Source: Bacteroidales bacterium
Lineage (GTDB): Bacteria > Bacteroidota > Bacteroidia > Bacteroidales > UBA12077
Length of the DNA stretch: 64,000 bases
Direction of reading: 5' to 3'
Assembly: GCA_028282785.1 (NCBI GenBank)
Contig: JANQHE010000037.1
Span: 206,856 to 270,855, forward strand
In this document: positions 37,303 through 62,553 of the stretch, piece by piece
Layout: each line of letters starts with the position of its first letter
Position numbering within the stretch: position 1 is the first letter of the stretch
The notes under the pieces: generated by a model
Told to the model about the DNA's origin: nothing
Database searches by the model: none
The model's input: the letters and a program-made list of their open reading frames with translations, nothing else
Translations under genes and position numbers: made by a program

Positions 37303-37560
37303 CCTACTCTAAACCATACCCAACCTCCTTTCTTTTTTGATTTATAGTTTATTCAATTAAAATTAGTTGGATTAATTCCAACGCAATAGTAGGAATCGGA
37401 CAATTTTTGATAATTGCTAATGCAATTCGAATTCTGTTTTACTCAATTCTAATTGTAATAGATTATCTAAGACCGGCGAGTACGTCAAATATTGTTGTGA
37501 TAGTAAAAAGAATGGTTACTGGCCTTACTGTAGATAAAGTTAAGCTTCTTATTATAAAAT
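37303..37560. repeat. ~258-bp intergenic direct repeat, copy 1 (contains module g, the SD and a degenerate micro-ORF)
   Basis: Aligns nearly colinearly with 38374..38630, sharing for example caattaaaattagttggat..aatcggacaat(a/t)tttgataattgctaatgcaattcgaattctgttttactcaattctaattgtaata. There is a partial third copy at 39473..39575. Confidence 0.8.
37356..37401 (-). promoter_or_regulatory. Island promoter-like module g
   Basis: Minus strand: GTCCGATTCCTACTATTGCGTTGGAATTAATCCAACTAATTTTAAT. It is followed 41 nt later by GGAGGT (37328..37323) and a decayed micro-ORF, ATG GTT TAG (37317..37309). Confidence 0.6.
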
Positions 37561-37562
37561 AA

Positions 37563-37673
37563 GAGGTTGTCCAAAAAGACTCGAAGACGTCATTGCGAAC
37601 CTGCCTTGCCGGCAGGCAGGCTTCGTCGTTCCTCCTCCTAATGACAGTAGGTTTTGACTTTTTGGACAACCTC
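37563..37673. repeat. MITE-like palindromic element, copy B (111 bp)
   Basis: GAGGTTGTCCAAAAAGAC...GACTTTTTGGACAACCTC with an internal cctgccttgccggcaggcagg. ORF 37463..37669 in the track is an artefact of this element. Confidence 0.65.
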
Positions 37674-37777
37674 AGTCAGGGTTATTTGCTATAGGATTTT
37701 TTAAATACCTATAATAATTAGGCTAAAGTCCATTAAAGTGAATTTTAGGTTTTGTTATGGTTATCTTGCCATATTGT

Positions 37778-38239
37778 CTACAGTCTATCGTATTCATTAC
37801 CGCAAGCCTGTTTCGCTTCTTCGAAAGTTTTCGGAGTATCTGATGATCTATATTCACTATCTGGACATATCCAGTGTCCAAAATGAGCTATTTTAAACTC
37901 ATCATTCTCAACTGGTTTAAGCTCGACAGTCCGCTTACCGTTTGTTGGTCGAACAAGCTCATATGTTGTGGTTGTGCCTACTTGCTTTATTGTTATAGTC
38001 TCATCTCCTACAGTACCAACTGAAACAATAAACTTTTTTCCTTCTGATTTGGCTTGCAAAAGTGCATCCCTATTATCTGGGTCAGTAGAGTATTGCCACC
38101 AAGAATGTACACTAGTGTTATCATCTTCTCCTTTATATCTCGCTTGACCTATGTTCCCAGCAATATAACAGTATGTACTGGAAGGTTTATTTTCGCGACC
38201 CGAACCAAGGTCATTGGTTATAAAATATGTTTTTGGCAT
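37778..38239 (-). CDS. Hypothetical protein (153 aa)
   Basis: ORF downstream of module h, a micro-ORF and a conserved hairpin. No signal peptide and no recognised motif. Confidence 0.5.
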   Translation of the reverse strand: MPKTYFITNDLGSGRENKPSSTYCYIAGNIGQARYKGEDDNTSVHSWWQYSTDPDNRDALLQAKSEGKKFIVSVGTVGDETITIKQVGTTTTYELVRPTNGKRTVELKPVENDEFKIAHFGHWICPDSEYRSSDTPKTFEEAKQACGNEYDRL

Positions 38240-38291
38240 TTTTCTTTCTTTAATTGTGTTTATTTTTATTTTCTTTTTAGCTTTTATTTAA

Positions 38292-38311
38292 AAGGTGTCA
38301 AACAACACCTT
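38292..38311 (-). promoter_or_regulatory. Conserved 5'-leader hairpin (attenuator/terminator-like), copy 1
   Basis: Minus-strand RNA is AAGGUGU-UGUUUG-ACACCUU followed by UUAAAUAAAAG. Its flanks are homologous to the copy at 56901..56920. Confidence 0.45.
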
Positions 38312-38360
38312 ATTTAAGTACTATTGATTCATTAACCATTAGTACCATAATATTTAATAG

Positions 38361-38384
38361 TTAAAATTGTACAACTCTACTCAT
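38361..38384 (-). CDS. SD-led micro-ORF, divergent copy (MSRVVQF*)
   Basis: GGAGGT at 38394..38389, a 4-nt spacer, then ATG AGT AGA GTT GTA CAA TTT TAA. The geometry matches the MIRAGP copies but the peptide has diverged. Confidence 0.4.
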   Translation of the reverse strand: MSRVVQF

Positions 38385-38630
38385 AGCAACCTCCTTTCTT
38401 TTTTTGATTAATAGTTTATTCAATTAAAATTAGTTGGATCAATTCAAGCGTGATAGTAAGAATCGGACAATATTTGATAATTGCTAATGCAATTCGAATT
38501 CTGTTTTACTCAATTCTAATTGTAATACGTTATCTAAGATTAGCGAGTAAGTCAAATACTGTAGTGATAGTGAAAAGAATAGTTAGTGATCTTACTGTAG
38601 GGAAATTTGACCTGCTTATATAAAATAATG
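38374..38630. repeat. ~257-bp intergenic direct repeat, copy 2 (contains module h, the SD and a micro-ORF)
   Basis: See 37303..37560. Confidence 0.8.
38423..38468 (-). promoter_or_regulatory. Island promoter-like module h
   Basis: Minus strand: GTCCGATTCTTACTATCACGCTTGAATTGATCCAACTAATTTTAAT. Confidence 0.6.
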
Positions 38631-38853
38631 ACTCGACTAAAAGTCCGTGCGAGTTGGTTAAGTTTTTTGTGTTTTTTTTATTTTATAAAATAAACTTGAA
38701 TGGATAAGTAATGTAAAAAGAATTTTACATTTTTATGTTTGAGTACACAACAAAACCTTGGACTGACGCCCAAGGCTATTGATAATGAAGCTTTGATGCA
38801 TAATTACTATCTAAATTGGTTGAATTATAACTTTTCTTTTTTAAGATTTTTTA

Positions 38854-39390
38854 TTATTCCATTTTAAATAACTCAAAAAAGTGCTCGTATGTATCCGCGT
38901 TTGATTTCAACTTACTTTTATTAAGATTTGTTCTTAATTTTTTATCCCCACTTACTCCATATTCATGATCTTCTGTATTCAGCACAATATGTGAAGCTTC
39001 ATGCACAAGTGTCCCCATTTGAGAATCCTCTCCTTTTTTATCAATTGTATAAAAATACGGACACAAGTATATTCCCTGTGCTTCGTTACCTGGATATGCA
39101 TATCCAAAATCTGTAGGGCCACAACTAGCTTCTTCCCCATTTTTAATTGGTGGCATCCTACTAATATAATCTTGGATCTTTGTATAACAATCAGCTAAAA
39201 GTTTTAATTCTCTATCACTAGATACACCCCAGTGCGTTTTTAAAAAATCTTTTTGTACTGATGTTAAATTATCAGGATTACGTAGAGCTTTAATAATCCT
39301 TCTGAGCCTATTAAAAGTTTTTACTATAATTTCTTCCAAGAGTGGTTTTTGATATACATTTAAATCTGTTCCTTCTCTTACTATTTGCAT
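38854..39390 (-). CDS. Aspzincin (M35-like, HExxH + GTxDxxYG-type) metalloprotease candidate
   Basis: GTLVHEASHIVLNTEDHEYG contains HExxH followed by T-E-D-H-E-Y-G. The downstream SNADTYEHFF resembles the NADSY segment of M35 enzymes. 178 aa with no signal peptide. An AGGAGA sits 8 nt upstream of the ATG. Confidence 0.55.
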   Translation of the reverse strand: MQIVREGTDLNVYQKPLLEEIIVKTFNRLRRIIKALRNPDNLTSVQKDFLKTHWGVSSDRELKLLADCYTKIQDYISRMPPIKNGEEASCGPTDFGYAYPGNEAQGIYLCPYFYTIDKKGEDSQMGTLVHEASHIVLNTEDHEYGVSGDKKLRTNLNKSKLKSNADTYEHFFELFKME

Positions 39391-39465: not shown

Positions 39466-39489
39466 CTACATTGGCCCTGCTCTAATCAT
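39466..39489 (-). CDS. SD-led micro-ORF encoding MIRAGPM*
   Basis: GGAGGT at 39499..39494, a 4-nt spacer, then ATG ATT AGA GCA GGG CCA ATG TAG. It lies 76 nt upstream of the M35-like gene start. Confidence 0.6.
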   Translation of the reverse strand: MIRAGPM

Positions 39490-39526
39490 AGCAACCTCCT
39501 TCCTTTTTTGATGAATAGTTTATTCA

Positions 39527-39572
39527 ATTAAAATTAGTTGGATTAATTCAAGCGTGATAGTAAGAATCGGAC
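39527..39572 (-). promoter_or_regulatory. Island promoter-like module i
   Basis: Minus strand: GTCCGATTCTTACTATCACGCTTGAATTAATCCAACTAATTTTAAT. Confidence 0.6.
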
Positions 39573-39856: not shown

Positions 39857-40552
39857 CTATTCTGTTACCTTTTCTATTTCTTTTTTTACATCCGGAGTTT
39901 CTTTTGACTCTACCACTGTTCCTCCGTCTCCAATCTTTATTTTTGTATCACCAATTATTAACTCTGTTGATTTTTCTTTATTCATAGATTCGGTTAACTT
40001 ATCATTCATCTCTTTAATAAGATCAATAAATTCCTTTCGTGATTTTTCGCGTGCATCAAACTGATGTGCTTGTTCTTTCATTTCCTCTTTTTTCAATCGT
40101 TCGGTAGATTGAATTTTGTTTATCTCAACCTGCAACTGATGTTCTGATTTAGCAAGCCTTTCTTTACGTTCCTGTCTCCTGTCAACCAACATCGGATCTT
40201 CATCTTTACCTACCGATGCTTCTTTAATTACCATTATTAATGCCATTACAACGGGTGCAATCATACCAACAACCGGGGTAAAAGCTGACTCAGAAAGAAA
40301 GTAACCTGACATACAGGTAATTAATACCAATAGTACGGTTGTTGGCATTGCCCAACGTCCAACAAGAATAGCAACCATATTATTATTTTTCTGTTTTTGC
40401 TGTTCATTAGTATCCTGATCTGAATTAGCAGAAGGATTCCCAGTTTCAACATCACCCGGCCCATCATCTTGATTATTAATCACCTCATCATCAACAAAAT
40501 CATTGTTCACCTCATTATCAGTAAGATTATTATTAAGTTCATCCTTATTCAT
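39857..40552 (-). CDS. Membrane protein with an acidic N-terminal region, 2-3 TM helices and a C-terminal coiled coil
   Basis: TM block MVAILVGRWAMPTTVLLVLITCMSGYFLSESAFTPVVGMIAPVVMALIMVI. The track start at 40564 is a TTG that lies inside an SD. The likely real start is ATG 40552 (MNKDELNN), preceded by GGAGGT-AATT (40562..40557), identical to the micro-ORF SD context. Confidence 0.6.
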   Translation of the reverse strand: MNKDELNNNLTDNEVNNDFVDDEVINNQDDGPGDVETGNPSANSDQDTNEQQKQKNNNMVAILVGRWAMPTTVLLVLITCMSGYFLSESAFTPVVGMIAPVVMALIMVIKEASVGKDEDPMLVDRRQERKERLAKSEHQLQVEINKIQSTERLKKEEMKEQAHQFDAREKSRKEFIDLIKEMNDKLTESMNKEKSTELIIGDTKIKIGDGGTVVESKETPDVKKEIEKVTE

Positions 40553-40643
40553 AATTACCTCCAATTTTTATAATTCATTTTTTATGAAACATTTAAATTA
40601 TCTTCCTACTAATTCCCAGTTTTCTTCTGGTTTATTGAGTTAT

Positions 40644-40689
40644 TACAAATTTATTAAAGCTTAAGCTTTGTTTATAGTAAAGATCAGAC
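40644..40689 (-). promoter_or_regulatory. Island promoter-like module j (most divergent copy)
   Basis: Minus strand: GTCTGATCTTTACTATAAACAAAGCTTAAGCTTTAATAAATTTGTA. GTCyGAT, TACTAT and a TAAATTTG -7 box sit at exactly the same offsets as in the other nine copies. Confidence 0.5.
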
Positions 40690-40845: not shown

Positions 40846-42186
40846 TTAATCAGAAATAAAATTTTCTATGTGATCATCATTACGTATTTCGGCAAGATGA
40901 AACTGTATTCCGTAAGGAGATGGAATATTTACAAAAGTATCGCGCCTTACTCCTTCTCCTTGAGCAGGAAATGATTCTGATTTATACACAACATCTTCTT
41001 TATTTGGAATATACCTTGGTTTGGCGTAATTTAATCTTTTTACTATTTTTGTAATTGTATTGTGATACTCTATCAAAGCTAATTTTTTATACTCTTCTTT
41101 ATATCCCAATTGTACCCTTACAATTTTCATAGCTTTTTCAACCTGGCGCTCCATGATTTCATCCAGGTATGGATAGGTTTCAATCAATACTTTTTTTACT
41201 TCTTCCCTGGCTGGTTGGTCAGTAAGTGAATAATCTATAATATTCAAAATGCTATCTTTTACCCATATACCAAATGTTTCTTTTACACCAGAATAAACGC
41301 CCATCTTATTTTGCCTGCTTTCGGGCCTATCTTTTAGAAGTAACAAACTGGGTATTGCCAACAAATTTGCTAATCCCTTACAGATGTGTACTAATGCTAT
41401 TTTACCCTGATTTGTTAATATGTTCTTAACAATTATATTATATAACAATTGATAAGTTTCACTGAAATATTCAAATCTTTCCGAAACATAGGCATCGTTT
41501 TTATGGCTGGAAATAAACTCTGCAATTTCTTTTGCAGTAATTGATATATTTAGTTGAGAATATACCTGATGTTTTATCGTCTTATGTTTTTTTCGCACAG
41601 AGATTAAAAGGCCTGTATTCTCCAAATTTATTTGCCATACATTACCCAAACCATATTTCTTAAAAATTACCGTTAGCTCCCTAAGATTATATCCAAATGC
41701 TTCATTATTTATCTCATGCATCGTTTTCCTTAAATTTTGCCAAATATTATATAGAGCTTCTTTGTTAATTTCTCCATCAACATTAGCTATCAAAAATGGA
41801 GGAAAACCTATTTCTAATTCATTGTATATGTCTGTTTCCAGAACAAAAGGCATATTAAACAGAGAACTAAAACCATCTGTTTTTCCAAGAACTGTATGCA
41901 CTGGTAATTGTTTGTTCTCTTGTATATTTTTAAAACCATAAGTTGCAAATTCAAATTCAAGCCCAATACTCCTGTTAAGCGACATTATTTTTTTCACATC
42001 TCCATTAAACGTATTATAAAGCCAATCTTGATATTCTCTTTGAGCATTTATTATTTCTTTGATTGTAAAATTTCCATCGGCATGAGCTTTTCTCAGCATA
42101 TCGAGATTGTCACAACATTCTTTTATTTTGTAATTTTTTTCAACTGTTTTCAAAATATTTTTGTAGCTATTAATCCCGGTTATCAT
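40846..42186 (-). CDS. Hypothetical protein (446 aa)
   Basis: No signal peptide. The only motif noted is SIGLEFEFATYG, faintly reminiscent of the first strand of glutamine-synthetase-like amidoligases. This is very tentative. Confidence 0.5.
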   Translation of the reverse strand: MITGINSYKNILKTVEKNYKIKECCDNLDMLRKAHADGNFTIKEIINAQREYQDWLYNTFNGDVKKIMSLNRSIGLEFEFATYGFKNIQENKQLPVHTVLGKTDGFSSLFNMPFVLETDIYNELEIGFPPFLIANVDGEINKEALYNIWQNLRKTMHEINNEAFGYNLRELTVIFKKYGLGNVWQINLENTGLLISVRKKHKTIKHQVYSQLNISITAKEIAEFISSHKNDAYVSERFEYFSETYQLLYNIIVKNILTNQGKIALVHICKGLANLLAIPSLLLLKDRPESRQNKMGVYSGVKETFGIWVKDSILNIIDYSLTDQPAREEVKKVLIETYPYLDEIMERQVEKAMKIVRVQLGYKEEYKKLALIEYHNTITKIVKRLNYAKPRYIPNKEDVVYKSESFPAQGEGVRRDTFVNIPSPYGIQFHLAEIRNDDHIENFISD

Positions 42187-46184: not shown

Positions 46185-46730
46185 CTAAGGTGTCATTCTT
46201 GAAATAATAAGATCAAGCATTTTTTGCAAACCTTCAGGTTTATCTTGCATGTTTGCTTCAACTCGAAATTGATATTTTGCCCCCATACTGGTTTTTCGAG
46301 TATTTTCTTTTGACTCACTAATTTTTCCCAGCATTTCTGTTTTCTTCAATGAAAACAGTTTTAGTTTTTTCATCTTATCTTCCTGATTACTATTATACTT
46401 ATTGGCATTTTCGATAGTTGTTTTCACCTCCAACTGAAAATCGACGGTAACCTTGTCAATCATTAATGAAGGAATAGGAAGTAAAGAAAGAAGTGGTGCT
46501 TTAACTGTTTCCTTGGCATAGGTAACAACTCCATCTTCTAATTTTTCTGCGATTGGGACATCAAAATCGATGGTTTTCAACTCTCCTTCATCATCGAACC
46601 CAATTAGTTTAATAAACTCATATGTACTCTCCGCTAAAGCGATCTGAGATTCCATAGTTGCACGAAACGGTGCACCAATAAGTTCTTTCATGGGCAATGA
46701 ACGAAGTTGATTTGCAACATTATTTTCCAT
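46185..46730 (-). CDS. Island family-1 protein (DUF2589-like), paralog 1
   Basis: LPMKELIGAPFRATMESQIALAESTYEFIKLIGFDD..APLLSLLPIPSLMIDKVTVDFQLEV..AKYQFRVEA..PEGLQKMLDLI. The same blocks occur in 47237.., 49052.. and 55284.., and more weakly in 46732... No signal peptide or TM helix. Confidence 0.6.
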   Translation of the reverse strand: MENNVANQLRSLPMKELIGAPFRATMESQIALAESTYEFIKLIGFDDEGELKTIDFDVPIAEKLEDGVVTYAKETVKAPLLSLLPIPSLMIDKVTVDFQLEVKTTIENANKYNSNQEDKMKKLKLFSLKKTEMLGKISESKENTRKTSMGAKYQFRVEANMQDKPEGLQKMLDLIISRMTP

Positions 46731-46731
46731 T

Positions 46732-47205
46732 TTATTTATCTTTTGGTATTACATTATTTGCAAAACTTTCGATAATACGCTGGATACCCTCCGGCGCATC
46801 ACCCTGTTTAAATTTCATCTTTAAATCAATCATATTCGTATCTCTACCAGATTTAACACCTCCTGAAGCAAAAGAAATATTAAAACTTGCACGATGAATT
46901 TCGTCACCTGCTTTTGTTATTTCCTTTTTTTTATCGATGCCATCAACCCTCAAACTCATATCAACTTCCAGCTCATCAAGTTCCATTCCCGTAGGTGTAA
47001 CGAGAGTAATTAAGGGAATATCAATAGATGTGTCATCTGAAATATTTATTCCCATTGAAATAGGATTTTGATCATCATCAAAGTAGCGGTCCAATAATTT
47101 AATATAAAATTTCTCAACGACATCTTGCGCTGCATTAACCGTATATTGTATTCCTTTAGCAATATCCGACAAGGTTTGTCCAGTTTTTTTATTTTCTTCT
47201 TTCAT
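46732..47205 (-). CDS. Island family-1 protein, divergent paralog 2
   Basis: IDIPLITLVTPTGMELDELEVDMSLRV..IDLKMKFKQGDAPEGIQRIIESF follows the same order of blocks. There is only a 1-nt gap to the next gene. Confidence 0.5.
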   Translation of the reverse strand: MKEENKKTGQTLSDIAKGIQYTVNAAQDVVEKFYIKLLDRYFDDDQNPISMGINISDDTSIDIPLITLVTPTGMELDELEVDMSLRVDGIDKKKEITKAGDEIHRASFNISFASGGVKSGRDTNMIDLKMKFKQGDAPEGIQRIIESFANNVIPKDK

Positions 47206-47236
47206 TTGTTTATATTTTTCTTAATTGTTTACGTTA

Positions 47237-47809: not shown

Positions 47810-47829
47810 TATTTTTAATTTTAATGTAT

Positions 47830-48390: not shown

Positions 48391-48401
48391 TACTATTTTT
48401 A

Positions 48402-48911: not shown

Positions 48912-48934
48912 AATGATAAAGTGTTTTTTTGATT

Positions 48935-49038: not shown

Positions 49039-49051
49039 ATTTTAAACTAAA

Positions 49052-52509: not shown

Positions 52510-52555
52510 ACCAAAAGTAGTTAGTAAGAATCGCTCTTAATAGTAATAATCGGAC
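52510..52555 (-). promoter_or_regulatory. Island promoter-like module a
   Basis: Minus strand: GTCCGATTATTACTATTAAGAGCGATTCTTACTAACTACTTTTGGT. No SD or micro-ORF follows. The main ATG lies 51 nt after the -7 box. Confidence 0.6.
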
Positions 52556-52844: not shown

Positions 52845-53774
52845 CTATTGTCCGATTGGAATAAATTTTAAGCTTTCTGCTTTGTCTTTATTGTTTGCAT
52901 TTTCATCTGCATTTTGGTTAATTACTTCAACAAACCATTTTCGTTTTAGCTTATTATTTTCAATCAACTGAATAGTATATTTATCAGCCAGAAGTTTAAT
53001 TATTTCTTGCCAGTCGAATCCTAAACCACCTCCAAGTGCCATTATTACTTCAGATTCCTTAAATTTTGCCCTATCTAAAACATCTTTTATTTTATCTATA
53101 AGAACCTGGTTTTCATGCAAACCAAAACCTTCATCAAACATGGGAGATAAATGTACGCCTATTACACCATCATTCTGAAGTTGTACTAAGCCGAGCCTGT
53201 TCTCCAATCGGTTAAAAGCAATGGCTTTCTTACTTTTACCACTTTCCCACTCACGAATAATTGGTATATCACCACATAATATTGATGTTTGATTTCCGGT
53301 ATACTCTATCTTCCGGTCGTACCACTTATTAAGCCTGCTTTGTGAATTTATAAAATCATCTACCTTTTTATAGTCCATTTCTTCCATTGTTGTATCTGTT
53401 TTTTCGTTTGTACTAGTTGTAATATTTTCCTCTTTAGGAGTTAATTCCTCTTTTGGCCGGGGTTTTACAACTTCTTTTTTGATAATCATTTCCTCCTTAT
53501 TAGTTTTTTGTTCCGAAGTTAATTGCTTTTTAATGTCATCAATTTCTGATGTAATTTTTTCTATTTTCTCTTTTAGAGAGCTTATTTCTGACATAAACGT
53601 TTCGTGAGCTTTATCTTTTTTTACCGTTTCTTTTTTAACTGTTTCTTCTTTTACCTTTGGTTCTGTTTTTGTTGTTACGGCTGGATTTGGTTCAACTTTA
53701 GTTTCGGCCTTCGTTTTCAGCTCATTTTTTTGAGCAGGTGTTCCTTTTTTAGTCTCTTCATCTTTTTTTTTCAT
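52845..53774 (-). CDS. Hypothetical protein with a Lys/Glu/Thr-rich disordered N-half and a globular C-half
   Basis: 309 aa. It is the last gene of the family-1/patatin transcription unit. No recognised motif. Confidence 0.45.
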   Translation of the reverse strand: MKKKDEETKKGTPAQKNELKTKAETKVEPNPAVTTKTEPKVKEETVKKETVKKDKAHETFMSEISSLKEKIEKITSEIDDIKKQLTSEQKTNKEEMIIKKEVVKPRPKEELTPKEENITTSTNEKTDTTMEEMDYKKVDDFINSQSRLNKWYDRKIEYTGNQTSILCGDIPIIREWESGKSKKAIAFNRLENRLGLVQLQNDGVIGVHLSPMFDEGFGLHENQVLIDKIKDVLDRAKFKESEVIMALGGGLGFDWQEIIKLLADKYTIQLIENNKLKRKWFVEVINQNADENANNKDKAESLKFIPIGQ

Positions 53775-53903: not shown

Positions 53904-55115
53904 CTATTCAATTATACTTTCATCTTTTTGTTCTATATATCTCAAGTAATTGATTCCTGCAAATTCTGCATAAGTTCCTCCATGAGTTAATATGCCACAT
54001 TCATCAATTCTATTTAAATACTCTTTTATATACGTTTCGGCTTCTATTAATTGCTCAATTGAAACTTCTCCTGTTAAAGTTTCAATTGCCTTTGCACTTT
54101 TTCCAGCAGCATTTACATTCAGGCCAATTAAAATATCACCTTTTAGTAATTGAAATCCGTATACTGAATCCCAATATACCTTATCAACATAACTCCTTGT
54201 ATTAAAAAGAGTTTCGATCAACATCCGGTCAAGATGCCCACAATTAATATATTTACCGTAATCTATTGCATCCAAGATTTTCTTGTTATCCAAACTTAGT
54301 ACCATCGAATTCTCGCCTTCTTCAACAAGTCCGGAATGAAATGGAAGGTTTAAATATAGCCCTCCATCGATACATGGAATGTCCTGACCTCCAATGTTAA
54401 TAATCTGGGCTGGCAACACTCCTGGGAAAGTTGCTGATGCTGACACAGCTTTTAATATTGGAACATCCATAGAAATCTCAGAAAATTCGGAATTCTTTTT
54501 TGACGTAAATATCTGGGGTACAATTTCATTCTCTAAAATCATGGTTACTGCAACAGAAATATGCCGTAGCCCAAATTCCTTGCATTTGTCCTCTCCCAGC
54601 TCATTCAGAAATTTGTTCCATTGGCCAAATGTTAGTTTCCTGATCTTACTTGTATTAAATTTTCCATACACCGGTTTCATTTCCTTTAAAAAGGTTTTAT
54701 TAGTTAGAACTGTATATAGTGCTTCTTCCAGAGGATGCTCCGTATGTACCGGTTTCTGCATAGTAAAAGGGGAGCCTATTAATTTACCGTATAACAAGGT
54801 GTTAATTGTATAACTTCCCATGGATTCCGGAGCAAAAGTATCTTCCTTGCGTTGTTTAATTACAGTTTTTAATGACATATTCGGATAGTCATAAATATTC
54901 TTGCTCGAATAACCGTACATTGATAACAAATGTTTAGGTTTACAACCAAAGCCTAATAATGATGCAAATAAAGCACCGCCACTTGTTCCTGAGGCATGTG
55001 TAAATTCCTGCAGTATTCCTCTTTTTTCTAATCCCAATGCAAATACAGGATAAAGAACAGATTTAGAACCGCCTCCACTGCAAAATAAATTTCTTAGTTT
55101 AAGTAATTTCTCCAT
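53904..55115 (-). CDS. Patatin-like phospholipase
   Basis: Oxyanion CSGGGSKS, nucleophile elbow GTSGG and catalytic Asp IDGGLYLNLP. No signal peptide. Confidence 0.8.
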   Translation of the reverse strand: MEKLLKLRNLFCSGGGSKSVLYPVFALGLEKRGILQEFTHASGTSGGALFASLLGFGCKPKHLLSMYGYSSKNIYDYPNMSLKTVIKQRKEDTFAPESMGSYTINTLLYGKLIGSPFTMQKPVHTEHPLEEALYTVLTNKTFLKEMKPVYGKFNTSKIRKLTFGQWNKFLNELGEDKCKEFGLRHISVAVTMILENEIVPQIFTSKKNSEFSEISMDVPILKAVSASATFPGVLPAQIINIGGQDIPCIDGGLYLNLPFHSGLVEEGENSMVLSLDNKKILDAIDYGKYINCGHLDRMLIETLFNTRSYVDKVYWDSVYGFQLLKGDILIGLNVNAAGKSAKAIETLTGEVSIEQLIEAETYIKEYLNRIDECGILTHGGTYAEFAGINYLRYIEQKDESIIE

Positions 55116-55283: not shown

Positions 55284-55775
55284 TTACACTTTCACAGGTT
55301 CCATCGATTTGGCCATAATCTCGGTAAGTTTTTCCATTCCAGCTGCCTGTGGCTCTCGCTCGGCTATCATTTTAATATCGTATTTGGCCGTTGGATCTGA
55401 AGGCCTGCTACGTTTACTGGTAGCCTTAACTGTTTTTAACTCCGGGTCGTTGGGATTTACCTCAAGGCTAAGATCTACAGTTACTTGTTTCATAGTTAAA
55501 GCAGAAACGCTAACCAAGGATATAAGTGGTGCCTCTACTTCCTGCTCTACCTGTTCAACATCATCTTCTCCCTTTTTTATTAAACGATTAAAAAGAACTT
55601 TCAATACACTTGTCTTTCCGTTTTGCTCTCTTCCATCTTCATTACTATTTCCAAAAGCTAGATTTTTTACGGTTTCAATGTATTTATCGATCATTTTTGA
55701 TTGTACACTAAGCGCTGCTATAAACGGACTACTTAGCAATTTTACTATTTCAGAATCCTTTGTTTGCTTTTCCAT
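55284..55775 (-). CDS. Island family-1 protein (DUF2589-like), paralog 5
   Basis: LLSSPFIAALSVQSKMIDKYIETVKNLAF..APLISLVSVSALTMKQVTVDLSLEV..AKYDIKMIA..AAGMEKLTEIM. Confidence 0.55.
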   Translation of the reverse strand: MEKQTKDSEIVKLLSSPFIAALSVQSKMIDKYIETVKNLAFGNSNEDGREQNGKTSVLKVLFNRLIKKGEDDVEQVEQEVEAPLISLVSVSALTMKQVTVDLSLEVNPNDPELKTVKATSKRSRPSDPTAKYDIKMIAEREPQAAGMEKLTEIMAKSMEPVKV

Positions 55776-55890
55776 TGTTTGTTGTTTAAGTAAATTTGAT
55801 TTGAATTAATTTTAAAACCGTATAAATGGCTTATTGCTTATCATTTCATGACATTTCACATTTTATGGGTTGATAAGCTTAATAAGTTTT

Positions 55891-55988
55891 AAACCCGTTT
55901 GATGAATGTATCGATCATTATTACCAGTATATAAAATGGAAAACCTCCAATGGTTGTAATAGTCTTTTAGCATTCATCAAACCGGTTT
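55891..55988. repeat. 18-bp inverted repeat enclosing an orphan SD in the leader of 55284..55775
   Basis: AAACCCGTTTGATGAATG (55891..55908) and CATTCATCAAACCGGTTT (55971..55988) are complementary at 17/18 positions. The 62-nt loop contains GGAGGT (55948..55943, minus strand) with no ATG at the usual spacing. Confidence 0.5.
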
Positions 55989-56002
55989 AATAATTAACCT
56001 AT

Positions 56003-56048
56003 ATCAAAAGTAGTGGGTATTACGTTGTTTTAATAGTATATATCGGAC
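56003..56048 (-). promoter_or_regulatory. Island promoter-like module b
   Basis: Minus strand: GTCCGATATATACTATTAAAACAACGTAATACCCACTACTTTTGAT. Confidence 0.6.
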
Positions 56049-56276: not shown

Positions 56277-56891
56277 TTACCGTTTTTCTAGAAAACCATC
56301 GCCTGAAATCTTGTAACCTTTATGTAACCATACTCCTAAATCTTCTAACCAAATGTGGTTATTTTTATCTATTATATCATAAACTTCTTTCCATGTTCCG
56401 TCGTCGCTATTAATATTTTTTCTTGGTTTGAATTCAACAAAACATTTTTCAAAATTTTCACAATCTATTTCCGGATATTTATTGAGTATTGGTACAATAT
56501 TATTATGTGCAAGCATTATTTTAGGGTAGTTTATTAGTATTTCTCTGAATTTCATTGCATTCTCCTTATTCCAAATTTTTAAATTATTGTATAGAAATCC
56601 ACTTAAAAAAAAAGGTGCATCATCCTTTGTTTCAGGTTCAGGTTTCCAATCTACAATTCTACTTGCAACTAAATCATTCTTTCCCCCAAAGTCTGTTCCT
56701 ATTATAGCACAGGTATCTGACATTATAATATCTCTAAAATTGTTATTCTTCCCCCAATTGTTAAGCCAATCCTCTGTTGGCTTGTCGCCCCAGTCTTTTT
56801 TTTCTTGTCCTTCGTAAAATTCTTTCCTTTTCGGGCCTTCTTCTTCTTTTTTATCTTCCATTTTATTTCTTTTTATTGGTTTTAATTGCAT
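56277..56891 (-). CDS. Hypothetical protein (204 aa, or 194 aa from the internal Met at 56861)
   Basis: The track start ATG at 56891 lies only 9 nt after the conserved leader hairpin, so MEDKKEEE at 56861 is the more likely start. No recognised motif. Confidence 0.45.
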   Translation of the reverse strand: MQLKPIKRNKMEDKKEEEGPKRKEFYEGQEKKDWGDKPTEDWLNNWGKNNNFRDIIMSDTCAIIGTDFGGKNDLVASRIVDWKPEPETKDDAPFFLSGFLYNNLKIWNKENAMKFREILINYPKIMLAHNNIVPILNKYPEIDCENFEKCFVEFKPRKNINSDDGTWKEVYDIIDKNNHIWLEDLGVWLHKGYKISGDGFLEKR

Positions 56892-56900: not shown

Positions 56901-56920
56901 AAGGTGCCTATCAACACCTT
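56901..56920 (-). promoter_or_regulatory. Conserved 5'-leader hairpin (attenuator/terminator-like), copy 2
   Basis: Minus-strand RNA is AAGGUG-UUGAUAGG-CACCUU followed by UUAUUAAAG. The flanks CTTcAAATAAGGTGTTG..CACCTTTTAttAAAG match copy 1. Confidence 0.45.
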
Positions 56921-57117: not shown

Positions 57118-57138
57118 TTAAGGCCCTGCTCTTATCAT
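57118..57138 (-). CDS. SD-led micro-ORF encoding MIRAGP*
   Basis: GGAGGT at 57148..57143, a 4-nt spacer, then ATG ATA AGA GCA GGG CCT TAA. The ATG is 41 nt after the -7 box of module c. Confidence 0.6.
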   Translation of the reverse strand: MIRAGP

Positions 57139-57176
57139 AATAACCTCCTTCTTTAATTGGTTTAAAATTTACTTAC

Positions 57177-57222
57177 ATCAAAAGTAGTTTGTAATAAACC
57201 CCTATGATAGTATATACTGGAC
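57177..57222 (-). promoter_or_regulatory. Island promoter-like module c
   Basis: Minus strand: GTCCAGTATATACTATCATAGGGGTTTATTACAAACTACTTTTGAT. Confidence 0.6.
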
Positions 57223-57424
57223 ATGCTCTTTTTTTACTATTGTTCAATATTTGAAATCTTTTTAAGGTTAAAACGAAAGGTATCCTCTGCTTAACTTATA
57301 TTGTGATTATTTCTATCCTGAACCGGGTTTAATTGTGTATTATTACCAAAGATTAAGGATTCTTGCAGCTATACTTTTTATTATTTGATAAAGAACGGAT
57401 AACATATCCGGCCCAACGGAGTAT

Positions 57425-57877
57425 TTATTCAGTGTCTATTTTAAAAAACAACATAACTTCATATTTGGTAGTTACACTTTCGGTTATAACACTCCACATT
57501 GCTCTTGCCGTTGGTTTTTTTTGTGCATCCTGAGGTTCTGTATATTTAGCACTTGGTACTTCTCTCCAGGTTGAGCCTGCCTTCTTAGCAAAGTGCATTT
57601 CATACGCCTTATAATCACTAATTTGTTTATCTCTTTTACCCAAACACAAAATAATATTAAAATCTTCTTCTTCTTTATCACTTACATCAAACGATATTCC
57701 TTTCCCTTCGCACATTTCCTGCAATATTACTGCAATATCAGTTGCATAATGTTCTTTTTTTTGTGCCTGGTTGTTTTTTTTATAATATTCTTTCAGTTTT
57801 GTTTGAAGTGTTGTCAAGCTAAGTTTCTTGTTTATCGCATAATCAAAACAATTTAAATATTTCTTTTTTGCTTCCAT
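57425..57877 (-). CDS. Hypothetical protein (150 aa)
   Basis: The ATG lies 23 nt after the -7 box of module d, giving a short A-rich leader. No recognised motif. Confidence 0.5.
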   Translation of the reverse strand: MEAKKKYLNCFDYAINKKLSLTTLQTKLKEYYKKNNQAQKKEHYATDIAVILQEMCEGKGISFDVSDKEEEDFNIILCLGKRDKQISDYKAYEMHFAKKAGSTWREVPSAKYTEPQDAQKKPTARAMWSVITESVTTKYEVMLFFKIDTE

Positions 57878-57897
57878 TTTATTTTTTATTGATTTAG

Positions 57898-57943
57898 TTC
57901 AAAAGTAGCTGGTAATAAACCCCTATGATAGTATATATCGGAC
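57898..57943 (-). promoter_or_regulatory. Island promoter-like module d
   Basis: Minus strand: GTCCGATATATACTATCATAGGGGTTTATTACCAGCTACTTTTGAA. Confidence 0.6.
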
Positions 57944-57993
57944 ATATTCTTTCTTATTATCATCCATTGTTTGAAATCTCATTAAAGTAAAAA

Positions 57994-58058
57994 GAGGATG
58001 TCCAAAAAGTCAAAACCCAACGTCATTACTGACATCTTCGGGTCTTTTGAACACCTTC
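57994..58058. repeat. MITE-like palindromic element, short copy D (65 bp)
   Basis: GAGGATGTCCAAAAAGTC...GTCTTTTGAACACCTTC. It sits inside an intergenic repeat whose sister copy (57223..57424) is ~50 bp shorter at this point. Confidence 0.45.
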
Positions 58059-58287
58059 TTACTGGTATTGTGAGTATTTCTATCTTGAACCGGGCTTAAC
58101 TGTATATTACCAGAGACAAAAAATTCTTATATCCATGTTATTTGTCATTGATAAGGACCGGATAACATATCCGATCCAGCCGGAGATAATTCCATATTAT
58201 AATTAAAATAGAAAAGGTTATCTTTATAAATTAGATAACCTTTTTCTAATGCTTAATTTAAAATAATGCAATACCTTTTTATGATAA

Positions 58288-59226
58288 TTATTCCAGAGGA
58301 AATTTATCATAAAAGGCAAAGCCTCCCTTTACAGAATCTTCATGTGCATATTCCTCTCCTGTCATTCTATGAAATAAATCCTTAAGCTTAGCACTGGTAA
58401 ACAGATTACCATGTCTCAATTCTCCTAAAGCCATGTTTTTTAGTAAAACGTAGTTAGAAGCTTCTTTTCTATCTTTTCCCTTAAAAACTACTCCCTGATT
58501 ATTAGCTCCATCTACATAAAATGCATATTGTGGTTGATGTTCATCGGTCCACCTATATGGCCCCATCCCCGCAGAACATACCAGGTGAATATCAAATTCC
58601 TCATTCTTTAACCTTTCCTTTGTGTTATCCAAACAAATTTCCAATCCATATACTATGTCATCAATTTTAAATATACCCCCACCGTTAAATCCTGAAATAT
58701 TTGATTCCGTTCCGGCTTCATCGACTTCAGGTTTTATCAAATTTCCTATCTCGGAAAAATCCAAATCAGAGATATTCTCTTTAATTACAACAAAACAATT
58801 TTCTCCTGCTGTAATTTGATCGTACTTAACTCCTCCTTTTAATACAAGAGCTGAGTTAAGAATTACCCTTTCATTAGCTGGATTAAGATAGCTAACAACA
58901 ACTGTCCCAAAAATAAACAGCCAGTCTTTATAAATATTTTTACCAGTTTCTACACTCATTAATCTAAATATTTCCGGTATAACATTTAAATCTTCATAAT
59001 AGCCTTTTTTAGGCCTGAAGAAAAACTCAGGTGCCATAAAAACTTTTAGTGTGTCTTCTGAAGAATAATTTTGTGCCCAATTTTCATTCGCATACATAAT
59101 TGCTTTTTCTAAAACCAATAATCTTGCTATGTAATCTTCTTTTTGATCTTCAAGGCCAACATAAGTTTCCGGGCCTCCACTTACATAAGGGGAAAAATCT
59201 GCAAATGTGATATATTTATATTTCAT
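58288..59226 (-). CDS. Carbon-nitrogen-hydrolase (nitrilase-superfamily)-like protein
   Basis: Candidate E-K-C triad: FMAPEFFF, VVIKENISDLDF and YGLEICLDN. 312 aa with no signal peptide. Confidence 0.5.
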   Translation of the reverse strand: MKYKYITFADFSPYVSGGPETYVGLEDQKEDYIARLLVLEKAIMYANENWAQNYSSEDTLKVFMAPEFFFRPKKGYYEDLNVIPEIFRLMSVETGKNIYKDWLFIFGTVVVSYLNPANERVILNSALVLKGGVKYDQITAGENCFVVIKENISDLDFSEIGNLIKPEVDEAGTESNISGFNGGGIFKIDDIVYGLEICLDNTKERLKNEEFDIHLVCSAGMGPYRWTDEHQPQYAFYVDGANNQGVVFKGKDRKEASNYVLLKNMALGELRHGNLFTSAKLKDLFHRMTGEEYAHEDSVKGGFAFYDKFPLE

Positions 59227-59414: not shown

Positions 59415-60650
59415 CTATTTTTTTCTGTTTCGGGTTGGAATCTCTACATCTAACCATATATCCCAATAATCTTCACTTAATTTCCCATTAACCTCTTTTA
59501 AACTCTCCCCTTCTTTTTTCCATACTCCAAACCTATCGCTTTTATCATATTCACTATCACAATGTAAAAGCACACCTCCTTCAATTAGATCTATACTATT
59601 CTCATTATGATCTGTTGATGCTGACAATATAATATGAATATCCGGACGTATTTCCTCTTTATTATAATCCGGACAATTCTCCAAAACTTTATCCTGATGA
59701 TCTTTACAAATCTCCAGTATTATTTGATGTGAACTGTCCTCCATACGATAATTCCATTGACTCTTTGGTCCTTTTACAAAAAACCGGCTATTTGGGTCCA
59801 TACCAATATAATGTAACTTTTGATCAGGTTTAGGAGGATGCATTAAATAAGTCCCGGTAATTTCTATATACTCCTCATGTTTACATAGTTTGGTCACGCT
59901 ACCATCTCTAAAAACCTGAGCGCAATTCATCAAAAACGTTGTTTCGGGATTTTGCAATGTTTCCTTTAAATCCTCATTGGTGTAATAACCAGATCTGTAT
60001 ATTTCAGGAGCTTGAACGGATGCTAACTGAGCTTCTTTAGGATTAATTCTTGATAAAATATTTTTATAGCGTATATCTCGGGCTATTTGCGGATCAAAAT
60101 CCTTAAATAATAAATTCTCATTCTTTTGAATCTTTTTAAATTCTTCTAATTTTGAGCTTCTTACTATTGTTCCGGGTATTATATAACAACCTTCCGGACG
60201 ATTGAATTTAAGATTCTCCATTAACTGATCTACTTTTATTACATTTTCCTCATTCAGTGCCCTGGAAGACAACATATAAGTTACATCATTATTATTAGCA
60301 TTTTTCTTGAGCCAATCCTCAACCTGCTCACTGCTCTCAAGGCTTGAAGCATTTCCTGTAAAATCTTGCCATACGTTTGAAAAATTGCCTCTCGGATATT
60401 CTTTAATGCCCTTATCCATATAAGATTTCATATCTAAAACGACCTCTTTCTTGGTTTTTGTTGCTTTTTCTGCAAAAAAATATTCAGGTGCCAGAATAAT
60501 AAAGGGTTTTTTATTAATTTTATTAGCTGCATGCATAGCATTCTCAAATATTTCGATTCTCTCATCAACAGATTTAACCATTCCCGACTGTTCCGATGTT
60601 TTCAGTTTTATCATTAGAATATTATATTCTTTTGATCCTTCTTTTTCCAT
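59415..60650 (-). CDS. Carbon-nitrogen-hydrolase-like protein, paralog
   Basis: IILAPEYFFAEK, LCKHEEYIE and QIILEICKDHQD. 411 aa with no signal peptide. Confidence 0.45.
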   Translation of the reverse strand: MEKEGSKEYNILMIKLKTSEQSGMVKSVDERIEIFENAMHAANKINKKPFIILAPEYFFAEKATKTKKEVVLDMKSYMDKGIKEYPRGNFSNVWQDFTGNASSLESSEQVEDWLKKNANNNDVTYMLSSRALNEENVIKVDQLMENLKFNRPEGCYIIPGTIVRSSKLEEFKKIQKNENLLFKDFDPQIARDIRYKNILSRINPKEAQLASVQAPEIYRSGYYTNEDLKETLQNPETTFLMNCAQVFRDGSVTKLCKHEEYIEITGTYLMHPPKPDQKLHYIGMDPNSRFFVKGPKSQWNYRMEDSSHQIILEICKDHQDKVLENCPDYNKEEIRPDIHIILSASTDHNENSIDLIEGGVLLHCDSEYDKSDRFGVWKKEGESLKEVNGKLSEDYWDIWLDVEIPTRNRKK

Positions 60651-60715
60651 TGTATAAATTTTAATTCATTTACATACTTCTTTAACAGCGTTATTTATTA
60701 ACATATTTTAATACC

Positions 60716-60748
60716 TTAACCATTAAAATTGGGCCCTGCTCTAATCAT
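60716..60748 (-). CDS. SD-led micro-ORF encoding MIRAGPNFNG*
   Basis: GGAGGT at 60758..60753, a 4-nt spacer, then ATG ATT AGA GCA GGG CCC AAT TTT AAT GGT TAA. The ATG is 41 nt after the -7 box of module e, and the stop is 65 nt before the main ATG at 60650. Confidence 0.6.
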   Translation of the reverse strand: MIRAGPNFNG

Positions 60749-60786
60749 AATTACCTCCTTCTTTATTTAGTTTATCATTTACTTAG

Positions 60787-60832
60787 ATCAAAAGTAGTTG
60801 GTACTAAATCCCTATGATAGTATATATCGGAC
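60787..60832 (-). promoter_or_regulatory. Island promoter-like module e
   Basis: Minus strand: GTCCGATATATACTATCATAGGGATTTAGTACCAACTACTTTTGAT. Confidence 0.6.
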
Positions 60833-60943
60833 ATGAGATTTTTTATTCGTTTATCTAAGTTTAAAAATCTTAAATAGGACAAAAAAAGCGAAGGGCACCC
60901 TTCACTTTACTTGTATATTGAATATTTTCTACGCTGAACCGGC

Positions 60944-61177
60944 TTAATAGATCTTGTTAAGAAATGTTTCTTTGCGGTCAACGATTTCAAGCTCTTGTAA
61001 AGTATCATTTATTGCATCCATAAAACCTTTGTCTTCAATTGTTGCAGTTCCCTCATACATTCTTCGCAACGACATATAAAATTTTAATTCTCCAAAAGCA
61101 AATTCATCAATTTTATTGTTAGCTTCAATAATAGAATTTGAGTATTGGTTGATCTTTTTTTCTATAAAATCTTTCAT
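60944..61177 (-). CDS. Small hypothetical protein (77 aa)
   Basis: ORF immediately downstream of the protease-like gene. A role as its partner or inhibitor is speculation. Confidence 0.4.
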   Translation of the reverse strand: MKDFIEKKINQYSNSIIEANNKIDEFAFGELKFYMSLRRMYEGTATIEDKGFMDAINDTLQELEIVDRKETFLNKIY

Positions 61178-61246
61178 CTGTTTTAATTTTAATTAAGTTC
61201 ATAAAGTTTAATGTATATCAGAATGTGCATAATTTTATAATTTACC

Positions 61247-61933
61247 CTAATGAGTTTTTTTAAAGCTAAATCCCATTTTTGCTGCTAAAATTGTCATTTT
61301 ATAAGCATAGGTATAATCAGAATCTACCTTAAATAAAAGGCCAACGGGCTTGTTTGTTCCTGATTCGACAAATACAGCCCCTGAATCGGCATACTCGGAT
61401 ACAATTTTTTCTATGATAAGTATATTACGCTCTACTTGTTTTATGTTTCCGGTAGAAAGGCCGGTTTTACAACCGGTTTTAAATACATCCCTACCTTCCG
61501 TAGGTTCAATTGGATCTGCATTAATCTCCCTGTCTATTTGTTCTAATGGAATTATTATCTCACAAAGTGCAGCATCATATTCATCATATGCTTCGCTAAC
61601 AAATGCTACAATTTTAGCTCGCTTATCTCCTCTGGGATATTGGGGATGAAAAACAGGAATCTCACCTTCTTCTATTCGTTTGAGCAACTCAGGAGCTAAA
61701 TCCCAATCACGCTCCTTTATTCTAACTAATAACTTTTCTCTGTTACGTTCTGTTTGTTCAGGATCATCAGTTGTTATAACATGTTTATTGGTTAATATCA
61801 TTGGCTTGCCATCTTTAAAAACAATAGCACCCAATGTTCCTTTTGAAGCTGTTGATAAGCCACTTATTTCCATTCCAGCCTTTAATATGAATTCATTTTT
61901 TAATTCATGTGTTTTATCTTTTACCGTTTCCAT
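61247..61933 (-). CDS. Trypsin-like (S1/chymotrypsin-fold) serine protease candidate
   Basis: His in GKPMILTNKHVI, Asp in EYDAALCEI and Ser in EYADSGAVFV, in the canonical H-D-S order. 228 aa with no signal peptide. Confidence 0.5.
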   Translation of the reverse strand: METVKDKTHELKNEFILKAGMEISGLSTASKGTLGAIVFKDGKPMILTNKHVITTDDPEQTERNREKLLVRIKERDWDLAPELLKRIEEGEIPVFHPQYPRGDKRAKIVAFVSEAYDEYDAALCEIIIPLEQIDREINADPIEPTEGRDVFKTGCKTGLSTGNIKQVERNILIIEKIVSEYADSGAVFVESGTNKPVGLLFKVDSDYTYAYKMTILAAKMGFSFKKTH

Positions 61934-61998
61934 ATTTATTTTTTTAATACATTGTTTTATTTATGTGTTATTTAAATTGAGTGTTTAGTTTTTTTTAG

Positions 61999-62460
61999 TT
62001 AATTTTTATTATCGATCAACTTATATTTGCATTTTTGTATTATTCGCAGCACATCAGACATAAACAAGATATCGTTACTTTTTCTAATTTTTAAATAATT
62101 AACTGATCGCACCATATCAGGTACTAAGGGACCCAATTCTTTTTTTAGGTTTAAATCTTTAAACAGTTCTGTTGAATTTATTGCCATTAAAACCTCTCCC
62201 TCCACATCTACATCTTCAATACTGAATTTCGCATCATGAAAAGCATTCAAAACGGCAACCCCATCAACCTCGTATGATAATTTATATTTTATGTTCTTTA
62301 AAATCGATTCTGACAGATTATGGATATTCTTTGTATCATTCCAAGGCGTGTTCTCAATTTTTTTTAGCAATTCTTCTTTAGTTAATTCTGAATATTTCTC
62401 TATCCAGGCTATTAGTCCGCTGTTTAAAATTTCAGCCGTGGTTTGATATTCTTTCTCCAT
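61999..62460 (-). CDS. Hypothetical protein (153 aa)
   Basis: First ORF after module f. No recognised motif. Confidence 0.45.
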   Translation of the reverse strand: MEKEYQTTAEILNSGLIAWIEKYSELTKEELLKKIENTPWNDTKNIHNLSESILKNIKYKLSYEVDGVAVLNAFHDAKFSIEDVDVEGEVLMAINSTELFKDLNLKKELGPLVPDMVRSVNYLKIRKSNDILFMSDVLRIIQKCKYKLIDNKN

Positions 62461-62507
62461 AATTCGTTTCTTTTATATTTTTATGATTTTAGTGACTTTC
62501 AATTAAT

Positions 62508-62553
62508 ATCAAAAATAGTTGGTACCAATTTCTTGTGATAGTAAATATCGGAC
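62508..62553 (-). promoter_or_regulatory. Island promoter-like module f
   Basis: Minus strand: GTCCGATATTTACTATCACAAGAAATTGGTACCAACTATTTTTGAT. Confidence 0.6.

Follow-up and report, generated by a model that had tools for sequence, protein, structure and literature searches.

SoxS and MarA are stand-alone AraC DNA-binding domains that act as monomeric activators with two helix-turn-helix (HTH) units, and among characterised members of the AraC family most activate transcription and some also repress it. These two proteins, together with Rob and with the regulators ExsA, ToxT and Rns, are the systems against which we set the present locus, in comparisons drawn from general knowledge. On the polymerase side, Flavobacterium and Bacteroides share the conserved -7 promoter box TAnnTTTG (PMC7641319). 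We analysed 64,000 nucleotides of an uncultured Bacteroidales bacterium that is present in several metagenome assemblies (GCA_028282785.1, contig JANQHE010000037.1, positions 206,856 to 270,855 of the forward strand; hereafter the window), whose nearest named relative is 'Bacteroidales bacterium CSMAG_1796' (66-97% protein identity). Part of this window is a 29-kb accessory island, from about 35.3 kb to the window end, with 31 genes, all on the minus strand, and a repeated 46-nt module. We propose that the modules are probably class-II-type, activator-dependent promoters of an autoregulated island regulon, read by an AraC-type regulator. Below, M0 to M10 denote the modules of the island and L-numbers denote public loci that we retrieved for comparison.

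An earlier note on this DNA had listed ten copies of the module on the minus strand, and their number, strand, coordinates and gap-free alignment all held on re-checking (M1 to M10 in Table 1, where the higher coordinate is the 5′ end). The layout is (T)GTCCGAT-N3-TACTAT, an unconserved 20-nt spacer and a -7 box, TAnnTTT(G/A). As the note had described, GTC(C/T)GAT occupies positions 1-7, with one copy (M4) deviating as GTCCAGT, and TACTAT occupies positions 11-16 and is invariant in the ten copies. The box at positions 37-44 reads TAnnTTTG in seven copies and TAATTTTA in the other three. When the 16-nt upstream block was searched by itself, ignoring the -7 box and allowing two mismatches, 12 matches were found against 2.6 expected, a number that none of 100 shuffles reached, and the -7 box stood exactly 20 nt downstream in all ten true copies. 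A position weight matrix built from the ten, which themselves score 24.6-62.8, gave no further match scoring at least 8 on either strand of the 64 kb, and a general repeat search recovered the same family independently. Every one of the ten lies in intergenic DNA, which makes up 26% of the island, and every one has the orientation of the gene that follows, which it precedes by 20-509 nt.

The count of ten stands for the complete copies in the window, and the set turned out to be larger, with an eleventh module, M0, at the window end and a relic at the island edge. A full copy of M0 is found in the same contig of another assembly (L001, 1206-1251) and again in L119 (1379-1424), a close relative. 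The edge site, at 35324, was considered as a twelfth copy and rejected, since it lacks a -7 box, and was classed as a relic. Because a related locus (L012) carries an intact module at the matching position, after the orthologous GNAT gene, we read the site as a decayed copy that marks the edge of the island. Modules stand at the head of the transcription units of the island, and between them these units account for all 31 island genes, in agreement with the claim of an island regulon.

The position of the upstream block relative to a Bacteroidota promoter could be fixed by comparison within the window. Two canonical promoters outside the island read TTG-N20-TAnnTTTG, at 31595-31565 and 29645-29615, and because their spacing is the same N20, the TAT of TACTAT (positions 14-16) falls exactly on their -33 TTG. 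The earlier note had placed the TACTAT/GTCCGAT block at the expected -33 site, and this proved accurate to the nucleotide: the -33 TTG is absent in all modules, and positions 14-16 read TAT throughout. Within island intergenic DNA we found no canonical TTG-N18-21-TAnnTTTG promoter, and seven of the ten minus-strand intergenic TAnnTTTG boxes of the island belong to modules. A sigma-70 promoter scan gave results at or below shuffled expectation, as expected for the phylum, and a terminator scan was only mildly informative. The centres of GTCCGAT and TACTAT are 9.5 bp apart, one helical turn, forming an asymmetric, bipartite site.

The register of this site to the -7 box is fixed at N20 in all ten window copies and in all orthologues. 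Orthologous M6 promoters occur in L016, L063 and L095, where the flanking proteins are 75-97% identical, and the alignment of the four promoters shows no change in T-GTCCGAT-..T-TACTAT or in TA.TTTT, whereas the intervening 20 nt are scrambled. Orthologues of M7 were found as well (L053, 19-64; L101, 1844-1889). The note's promoter reading appears sound to the extent that sequence can test it, as it fits everything of that kind.

Table 1. Modules, regulator genes and leader elements of the island, in window coordinates (ORF, open reading frame; SD, Shine-Dalgarno sequence)
Feature	Position	Strand	Description
M0, eleventh module	63979-64000 (last 22 nt)	minus	-7 box TAATTTAG; 5′ half GTCTGATTTTTACTATCAGGTGGA just past the window end; followed by a 33-aa ORF and then by both regulator genes
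DUF6597 protein, 169 aa	63323-63832	minus	Pfam DUF6597 E=3e-5, score 24.3, below cutoff 27
Stand-alone AraC-type DNA-binding domain, 118 aa, two HTH	62964-63320	minus	Pfam HTH_18 E=3e-15, HTH_AraC E=5e-12
M1	62508-62553	minus	47 nt upstream of ORF 61999-62460; unit continues with 61247-61933 and 60944-61177 and is closed by a terminator-like hairpin, 60885-60908
M2	60787-60832	minus	Leader with MIRAGPNFNG micro-ORF, then ORFs 59415-60650 and 58288-59226
M2 leader element	60716-60765	minus	SD AGGAGGT 60753-60759, 4 nt, then ATG ATT AGA GCA GGG CCC ... (MIRAGPNFNG-stop)
M3	57898-57943	minus	20 nt upstream of ORF 57425-57877
M4 (GTCCAGT variant)	57177-57222	minus	Leader with MIRAGP micro-ORF, then ORF 56277-56891
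M4 leader element	57118-57155	minus	SD AGGAGGT 57143-57149, 4 nt, then MIRAGP-stop
M5	56003-56048	minus	227-nt structured leader, then DUF2589 gene 55284-55775, patatin gene 53904-55115 and ORF 52845-53774
M6	52510-52555	minus	48 nt upstream of ORF 51904-52461, first gene of the 13-gene core cluster, which ends with 40846-42186 and includes four DUF2589 genes
M7 (GTCTGAT, -7 box TAAATTTG)	40644-40689	minus	79 nt upstream of ORF 39857-40564
M8	39527-39572	minus	Leader with MIRAGPM micro-ORF, then M35 aspzincin peptidase gene 38854-39390
M8 leader element	39466-39506	minus	SD AGGAGGT 39494-39500, 4 nt, then MIRAGPM-stop
M9	38423-38468	minus	Leader with decayed micro-ORF MSRVVQF-stop (38361-38384), then ORF 37778-38239
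M9 leader element, decayed	38361-38401	minus	MSRVVQF-stop
M10	37356-37401	minus	Leader with decayed micro-ORF MV-stop (37309-37317), then 68-aa ORF and C58 (YopT-like) peptidase gene 36193-36846
M10 leader element, decayed	37309-37335	minus	MV-stop
Relic module, island edge	35279-35324	minus	Operator GTCTGATAATTCCTAT (35309-35324, one mismatch to the block), no -7 box

At the head of the island, directly downstream of M0 and upstream of M1, lie two adjacent genes that are the only DNA-binding candidates found among the island proteins, a DUF6597 protein and a stand-alone AraC-type DNA-binding domain. The 118-aa ORF is a complete two-HTH domain and matches the AraC DNA-binding domain 2k9s in a PDB sequence search (residues 1-102), and the DUF6597 ORF is best read as the sensor, or N-terminal, half of an AraC-type regulator, encoded as an ORF of its own. 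Together the two ORFs match one contiguous 292-aa AraC protein of a Prolixibacteraceae locus (L010), with 44% identity over the N-terminal half and 51% over the DNA-binding part; this is the closest full-length relative, it lies outside the lineage, and the site stands 46 nt after its stop codon. No paper on DUF6597 was found in a literature search. The earlier note had left the class of factor open between activator, repressor and alternative sigma; these genes and the comparative data below point to an AraC-family regulator of the DUF6597 plus HTH_18 type, rather than a sigma factor, as the best candidate.

The split itself is stable. The 118-aa ORF starts 2 nt after the DUF6597 stop (TAG CC ATG) in a different frame, so that a single reading frame interrupted by a readthrough stop was rejected. 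The same split is seen in independent assemblies and in GCA_028279845.1 (L119, 1571-2439), and it recurs in CSMAG_1796 (L122, 3801-4623), where both ORFs are intact, the DNA-binding domain is again 118 aa long and 75% identical, and the junction is a ATGTCTAA overlap instead of TAG CC ATG. A recent pseudogene and an assembly error were both rejected on these grounds. Across the loci with the split, the DUF6597 protein measures 157-169 aa.

We scanned species-representative genome and metagenome collections with the pattern GTCYGAT-N3-TACTAT-N20-TAnnTTT and obtained 113 loci. Most are single scattered matches, as expected by chance for 17 fixed bases, and a subset that shares GTCCGATTTTTACTAT comes from Sphingobacterium, Bacteroides, several Flavobacteriaceae, Saprospiraceae and Prolixibacteraceae. 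An AraC HTH gene lies within 1 kb in 19 of the 26 loci with GTCCGATTTTTACTAT-N20-TAnnTTT versus two of the 76 other non-island matches. Three layouts recur: in 10 loci from several genera, only 3-7 nt separate the AraC stop codon from the operator, which stands at the head of the following gene; in Bacteroides, the operator directly precedes the AraC gene, and a second copy, divergently oriented, serves the neighbour gene; and in Sphingobacterium, it is divergent. The neighbouring regulators carry DUF6597 as well as HTH_18 in seven of nine cases, one of them below the Pfam cutoff. The gene downstream encodes a glyoxalase/VOC protein in L021 (confirmed by Pfam), and inspection of the sequences indicated VOC-like products in six other Flavobacteriia loci, an amidohydrolase-like product in one and, from its GHSLGG motif, a lipase-like product in L010.

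Positions that the search left unfixed are informative about the site. Conservation amounts to 1.4 bits at the T ahead of the first G and to 1.4-1.8 bits at the N3, which is TTT, compared with about 0.1 bit for the 20-nt spacer. Independently of the pattern, homologues of the regulator found by protein similarity alone (L119, L122 and L123) have the site just downstream in three of three cases. Other genomes have one to three sites per locus versus eleven in the window island. The operator had been put forward as an element of the island, and it is indeed present across it, but it is not island-specific, as many Bacteroidota have a variant of it beside AraC genes. The representative collection's nearest genome, CSMAG_1796, contains the exact pattern only twice, each time in an island-homologous contig, an argument against a repeat dispersed throughout the genome. 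Modules are absent from a more distant DUF2589 cluster (L117), so the AraC-module wiring was acquired in this lineage and is specific to it, not a property of DUF2589 clusters. Three operator-only matches in viral contigs were discarded as chance, having neither a -7 box nor an AraC gene. In the literature, the operator strings returned a single, unrelated match to a shorter fragment.

According to the model that we favour, the primary sigma factor of the housekeeping RNA polymerase would read the -7 box at positions 37-44, and because the -33 TTG is missing, the promoter would be weak by itself and dependent on a factor. In place of the -33 element, roughly from -49 to -33 relative to the expected start, would stand the 17-bp asymmetric operator T-GTCCGAT-N3-TACTAT, whose footprint would suit a single AraC-type domain with its two HTH units in adjacent major grooves. 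The 118-aa domain is predicted to bind this operator as a monomer, one HTH per conserved half, and to act with, or be controlled by, the DUF6597 protein, which presumably conveys the sensed signal. Sitting over the -33 position, the domain would recruit polymerase and thus activate rather than repress, as MarA and SoxS do at class II promoters, and the island would be switched on as a unit of 11 transcription units and 31 genes. Since the regulator genes have a module of their own, M0, the autoregulation is probably positive.

Several points weigh against this activator model. It is drawn from comparison of sequences, and a repressor could just as well act from a site over -33. Two ORFs share the coding of the regulator, which leaves its activity a prediction, and to the concern about a pseudogene the conserved split in the 75%-identical relative, with its different junction, gives a partial answer. 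The ten copies amount to about six or seven independent lineages. The public search pattern fixed the blocks and allowed no spacing other than N20, so that off-island conservation at the block positions is by construction and the N20 spacing elsewhere is by design. Seven of the 26 GTCCGATTTTTACTAT loci have no AraC match; truncation may explain part of them, as L032 is at the end of its contig and the contigs of L068 and L096 measure less than 1.7 kb. Finally, the scan of the source genome covered 64 kb, and sites elsewhere in that genome are possible.

A rival that takes the first of these points further would have the AraC-type protein, or another factor, repress the modules, with occupancy of the operator blocking transcription until release. 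Repressors also use the -33 region that the operator overlaps, some AraC-family members repress as well as activate, and a site upstream of the regulator's own genes would also fit negative autoregulation. We nevertheless consider repression unlikely: modules without a -33 TTG offer no obviously strong promoter to repress, characterised AraC-family members are mostly activators, and across genera the operator keeps a fixed register in which it replaces the -33 element rather than overlapping it, the pattern of a class II activator. The missing -33 element and the high conservation of the block could also be explained if the block were the -35-like element of an alternative sigma factor, of the extracytoplasmic function (ECF) type or another, encoded outside the 64 kb of source DNA inspected, with the AraC gene nearby by coincidence. 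This seems very improbable to us, as the downstream element is the primary-sigma -7 box and not an ECF -10, and a sigma element would not predict the three AraC-adjacent layouts seen across the phylum. Furthermore, the island has no sigma or anti-sigma gene, since among its 31 proteins no sigma domain was found above threshold and the one weak match, to Sigma54_CBD (E=1.6e-3), is sub-threshold.

Duplication within the island gives some weight to a different idea, that the modules are a functionless dispersed or duplicated repeat, either the remnant of a small mobile element or a segmental duplication of cassette borders. By spacer identity, M8, M9 and M10 form one group (17-22 of 23 variable positions match) and M2, M3 and M4 another (20-21 of 23), with M1 loosely attached. 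These two groups are recent duplicates including their flanks; one duplication spans 238 nt, an 81-nt unit that begins at the operator's first G and extends to the SD sequence is present three times, and cassettes differ between close relatives while the same 5′ unit is kept. Between lineages, however, only 4-14 of the 23 spacer positions match, close to chance, and the blocks alone are conserved. M5, M6, M7 and M0 are unrelated to the other modules outside the blocks and yet keep both the blocks and their exact spacing, and orthologues likewise retain the blocks and lose the spacer. Terminal inverted repeats and target duplications are absent from the modules, all copies are intergenic, co-oriented and upstream of the next gene, and the site recurs singly beside AraC genes in distant genera. 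A repeat without function is in our view the least probable of the explanations considered, and the modules are better understood as activator-dependent promoters.

Two details of the earlier note are affected by these duplications. The (C)CAAC at positions 32-36 is weakly conserved in the island and is not a general element, with 0.3-1.3 bits in 24 island-type modules versus about 0.1 bit in sites from other genera, and it is absent from the orthologues in L063 and L095. The micro-ORF ATG does stand 40-41 nt after position 44 in all five window copies that have a micro-ORF, but the distance does not hold in relatives, where it is 31 nt (L053, L057 and L116). Both the CCAAC and the constant distance are probably, in large part, products of duplication. 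Cassette borders are duplicated both at the 5′ end, where the module and leader lie, and at the 3′ end (57230-57415 versus 57950-58178, and 37315-37552 versus 38382-38619). In L119 (7361-8662), the same module and leader precede other cargo, a 354-aa gene, where the window has two cassettes. The pattern suggests that cassette cargo is exchanged by recombination between shared borders.

The leaders behind M2, M4, M8, M9 and M10 have a further feature. In each, a perfect SD, AGGAGGT, stands at +29/+30 counted from position 44, and a micro-ORF begins 4-5 nt beyond it, whereas of the 55 genes in the window only two have an SD-like sequence. Ribosomes of Bacteroidia are reportedly SD-blind, with bS21, bS18 and bS6 hiding the anti-SD, and rpsU is the known SD-bearing exception (PMC13000453, PMC9976891). 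The micro-ORFs encode IRAGP, intact in three of the five window copies and found also in L081, L116 and L119; intact forms in relatives include MIRAGPYK-stop, (TTG)IRAGPKI-stop and MIRAGPNSY..., and decayed forms include MIRAKP-stop, MI-stop, MRKAGL-stop and MIRAVS.... About half of all copies, in the window and in relatives, are decayed, and differences among the intact ones are synonymous (ATT/ATA, GGG/GGA, CCA/CCT/CCC). The SecM arrest motif has IRAGP as its C-terminal core, and there are several contexts in which RAGP supports arrest, although the known arrest peptides depend in addition on a neighbouring N-terminal region in contact with the exit tunnel (PMC12992588).

It is conceivable, if doubtful, that these leaders are devices of translational control, in which the MIRAGP micro-ORFs, by way of their SD, would be read mostly by those ribosomes whose anti-SD is free. 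If a ribosome then stalled on RAGP close to the 5′ end, it could set mRNA stability or access to the cargo genes, and the cargo would be controlled both by the AraC-type activator and by the state of the ribosome pool. Such a device should not work in an SD-blind lineage as currently understood. The micro-ORFs resemble SecM-type or RAPP-like arrest peptides in their C-terminal R-A-(P/G)-P core. Unlike them, they have only Met-Ile before RAGP and no tunnel-spanning N-terminal region, and the genes downstream are peptidases and proteins of no assigned role instead of Sec/YidC components. Folding of the micro-ORF leaders gave no significant overall structure (z from +1.3 to -1.7), and we propose no defined attenuator. 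Searching a collection of viral contigs for the SD plus MIRAGP pattern gave no match.

Other structures were noted in the leaders. Near-identical terminator-like hairpins, AAGGTGTTG(N4)CACCTTTT, lie on the minus strand at 38292-38311 and 56901-56920, downstream of the micro-ORFs and just upstream of ORFs 37778-38239 and 56277-56891, and could be attenuators. The M5 leader contains a hairpin of about 100 nt (55889-55990, minus strand; stems TTTGATGAATGC and GCATTCATCAAA) upstream of the DUF2589-patatin unit. The whole M5 leader folds with a minimum free energy of -47.9 kcal/mol (z = -4.0), and no shuffle was as stable; four related loci (L119, L095, L071 and L103) preserve the stem, in which one pair is compensatory. 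Rfam at gathering thresholds gave no family for the whole window, this hairpin included.

The cargo of the island includes five DUF2589 paralogues, a patatin-like phospholipase, a C58 (YopT-like) peptidase, an M35 aspzincin peptidase, a DUF1508 protein and a GNAT acetyltransferase, along with many proteins without a family. The DUF2589 paralogues lie at 46185-49618 (four) and at 55284-55775. The family is widespread, including in Bacteroides fragilis and Phocaeicola vulgatus, and is uncharacterised, with passing mentions only, in two papers, in the literature searched. A PDB profile search with the five paralogues gave no match; an AlphaFold model from a 33-sequence alignment showed a long N-terminal helix and a beta-sheet at low confidence (predicted local distance difference test score of 58), and a Foldseek search of this low-confidence model against the PDB returned nothing below E=1.9. 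In L117 (8858-11061), the DUF2589 core cluster adjoins a pyridoxal phosphate-dependent decarboxylase and a protein with the ligand-binding domain of a neurotransmitter-gated channel.

Searches of ten unannotated island proteins against NCBIfam gave nothing usable. Three proteins without a Pfam or NCBIfam match (49967-51874, 58288-59226 and 59415-60650) all contain a PEFFF/PEYFF motif; the products of 49967-51874 and 58288-59226 are weakly similar via homologues in related loci, and a homologue in L053 also lies behind a module with an SD leader. A 68-aa ORF rich in Cys, His and Lys (MEKDNKKKKCKTCGQERPCPCEH..., 36937-37143, minus strand) occupies the 509-nt leader between M10 and the C58 peptidase gene. 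Outside the island, positions 1-35 kb are ordinary Bacteroidota chromosome, with genes for a hybrid sensor kinase and a HipA toxin and with a polysaccharide-utilisation locus that comprises SusC/SusD, GH92, ROK, MFS and GntR genes. The HipA-like kinase toxin gene (9441-10714; HipA_C, E=6e-44) overlaps a 109-aa upstream ORF, and the two are a probable toxin-antitoxin pair.

What these results offer is an operator consensus for regulators of the DUF6597 type of AraC, T-GTCCGAT-(TTT)-TACTAT at 20 nt upstream of the -7 box, in a form that can be tested. They illustrate a probable design of activator-dependent promoters in Bacteroidota, for whose -33/-7 system few activator sites have been defined. 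The island joins 31 mostly uncharacterised genes in one predicted regulon, among them five DUF2589 genes, the patatin and the YopT-like and M35 peptidases, and with 11 promoters, probable autoregulation and a naturally split pair of sensor and DNA-binding protein, it would make a compact experimental system. Its co-regulated parts of graded similarity would be usable in Bacteroidota genetics. The SD/IRAGP leaders are an odd feature of the system, as both a perfect SD and a MIRAGP micro-ORF are unusual in an SD-blind lineage.

Compared with described systems, the modules resemble canonical Bacteroidota primary-sigma promoters in their -7 box, their distance to genes and their 20-nt spacing, and differ from them in that the TAT of an invariant TACTAT replaces the -33 TTG and a conserved GTCCGAT lies further upstream. 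The arrangement recalls the class II promoters of MarA, SoxS and Rob in E. coli, where the promoter has no upstream element of its own and its upstream hexamer is overlapped by an asymmetric, bipartite site. There, too, about one helical turn separates the two halves of the site, and its distance to the downstream element is fixed. Like SoxS and MarA, the island regulator includes a DNA-binding domain that stands alone, here of 118 aa. Unlike at those promoters, the architecture is -33/-7 and not -35/-10, the site is unrelated to the marbox, and the regulator is of the DUF6597 type, with its sensor half a separate, adjacent protein and with binding and activation that are predicted.

At the level of the regulon, the closest parallels are the ExsA regulon of Pseudomonas aeruginosa type III secretion and those of ToxT and Rns, in which one AraC-family regulator is encoded inside the island. 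As in the ExsA and ToxT regulons, about ten promoters, including that of the regulator's own operon, share a site next to or over the upstream element, and the cargo includes hydrolase and effector-like genes. The differences from ExsA are the phylum, the promoter architecture and a short site that looks like that of a single monomer instead of two adjacent sites; no anti-activator cascade is evident, and the island is a DUF2589 cluster. The type of circuit is therefore familiar, while the operator on which it turns is apparently undescribed and found phylum-wide.

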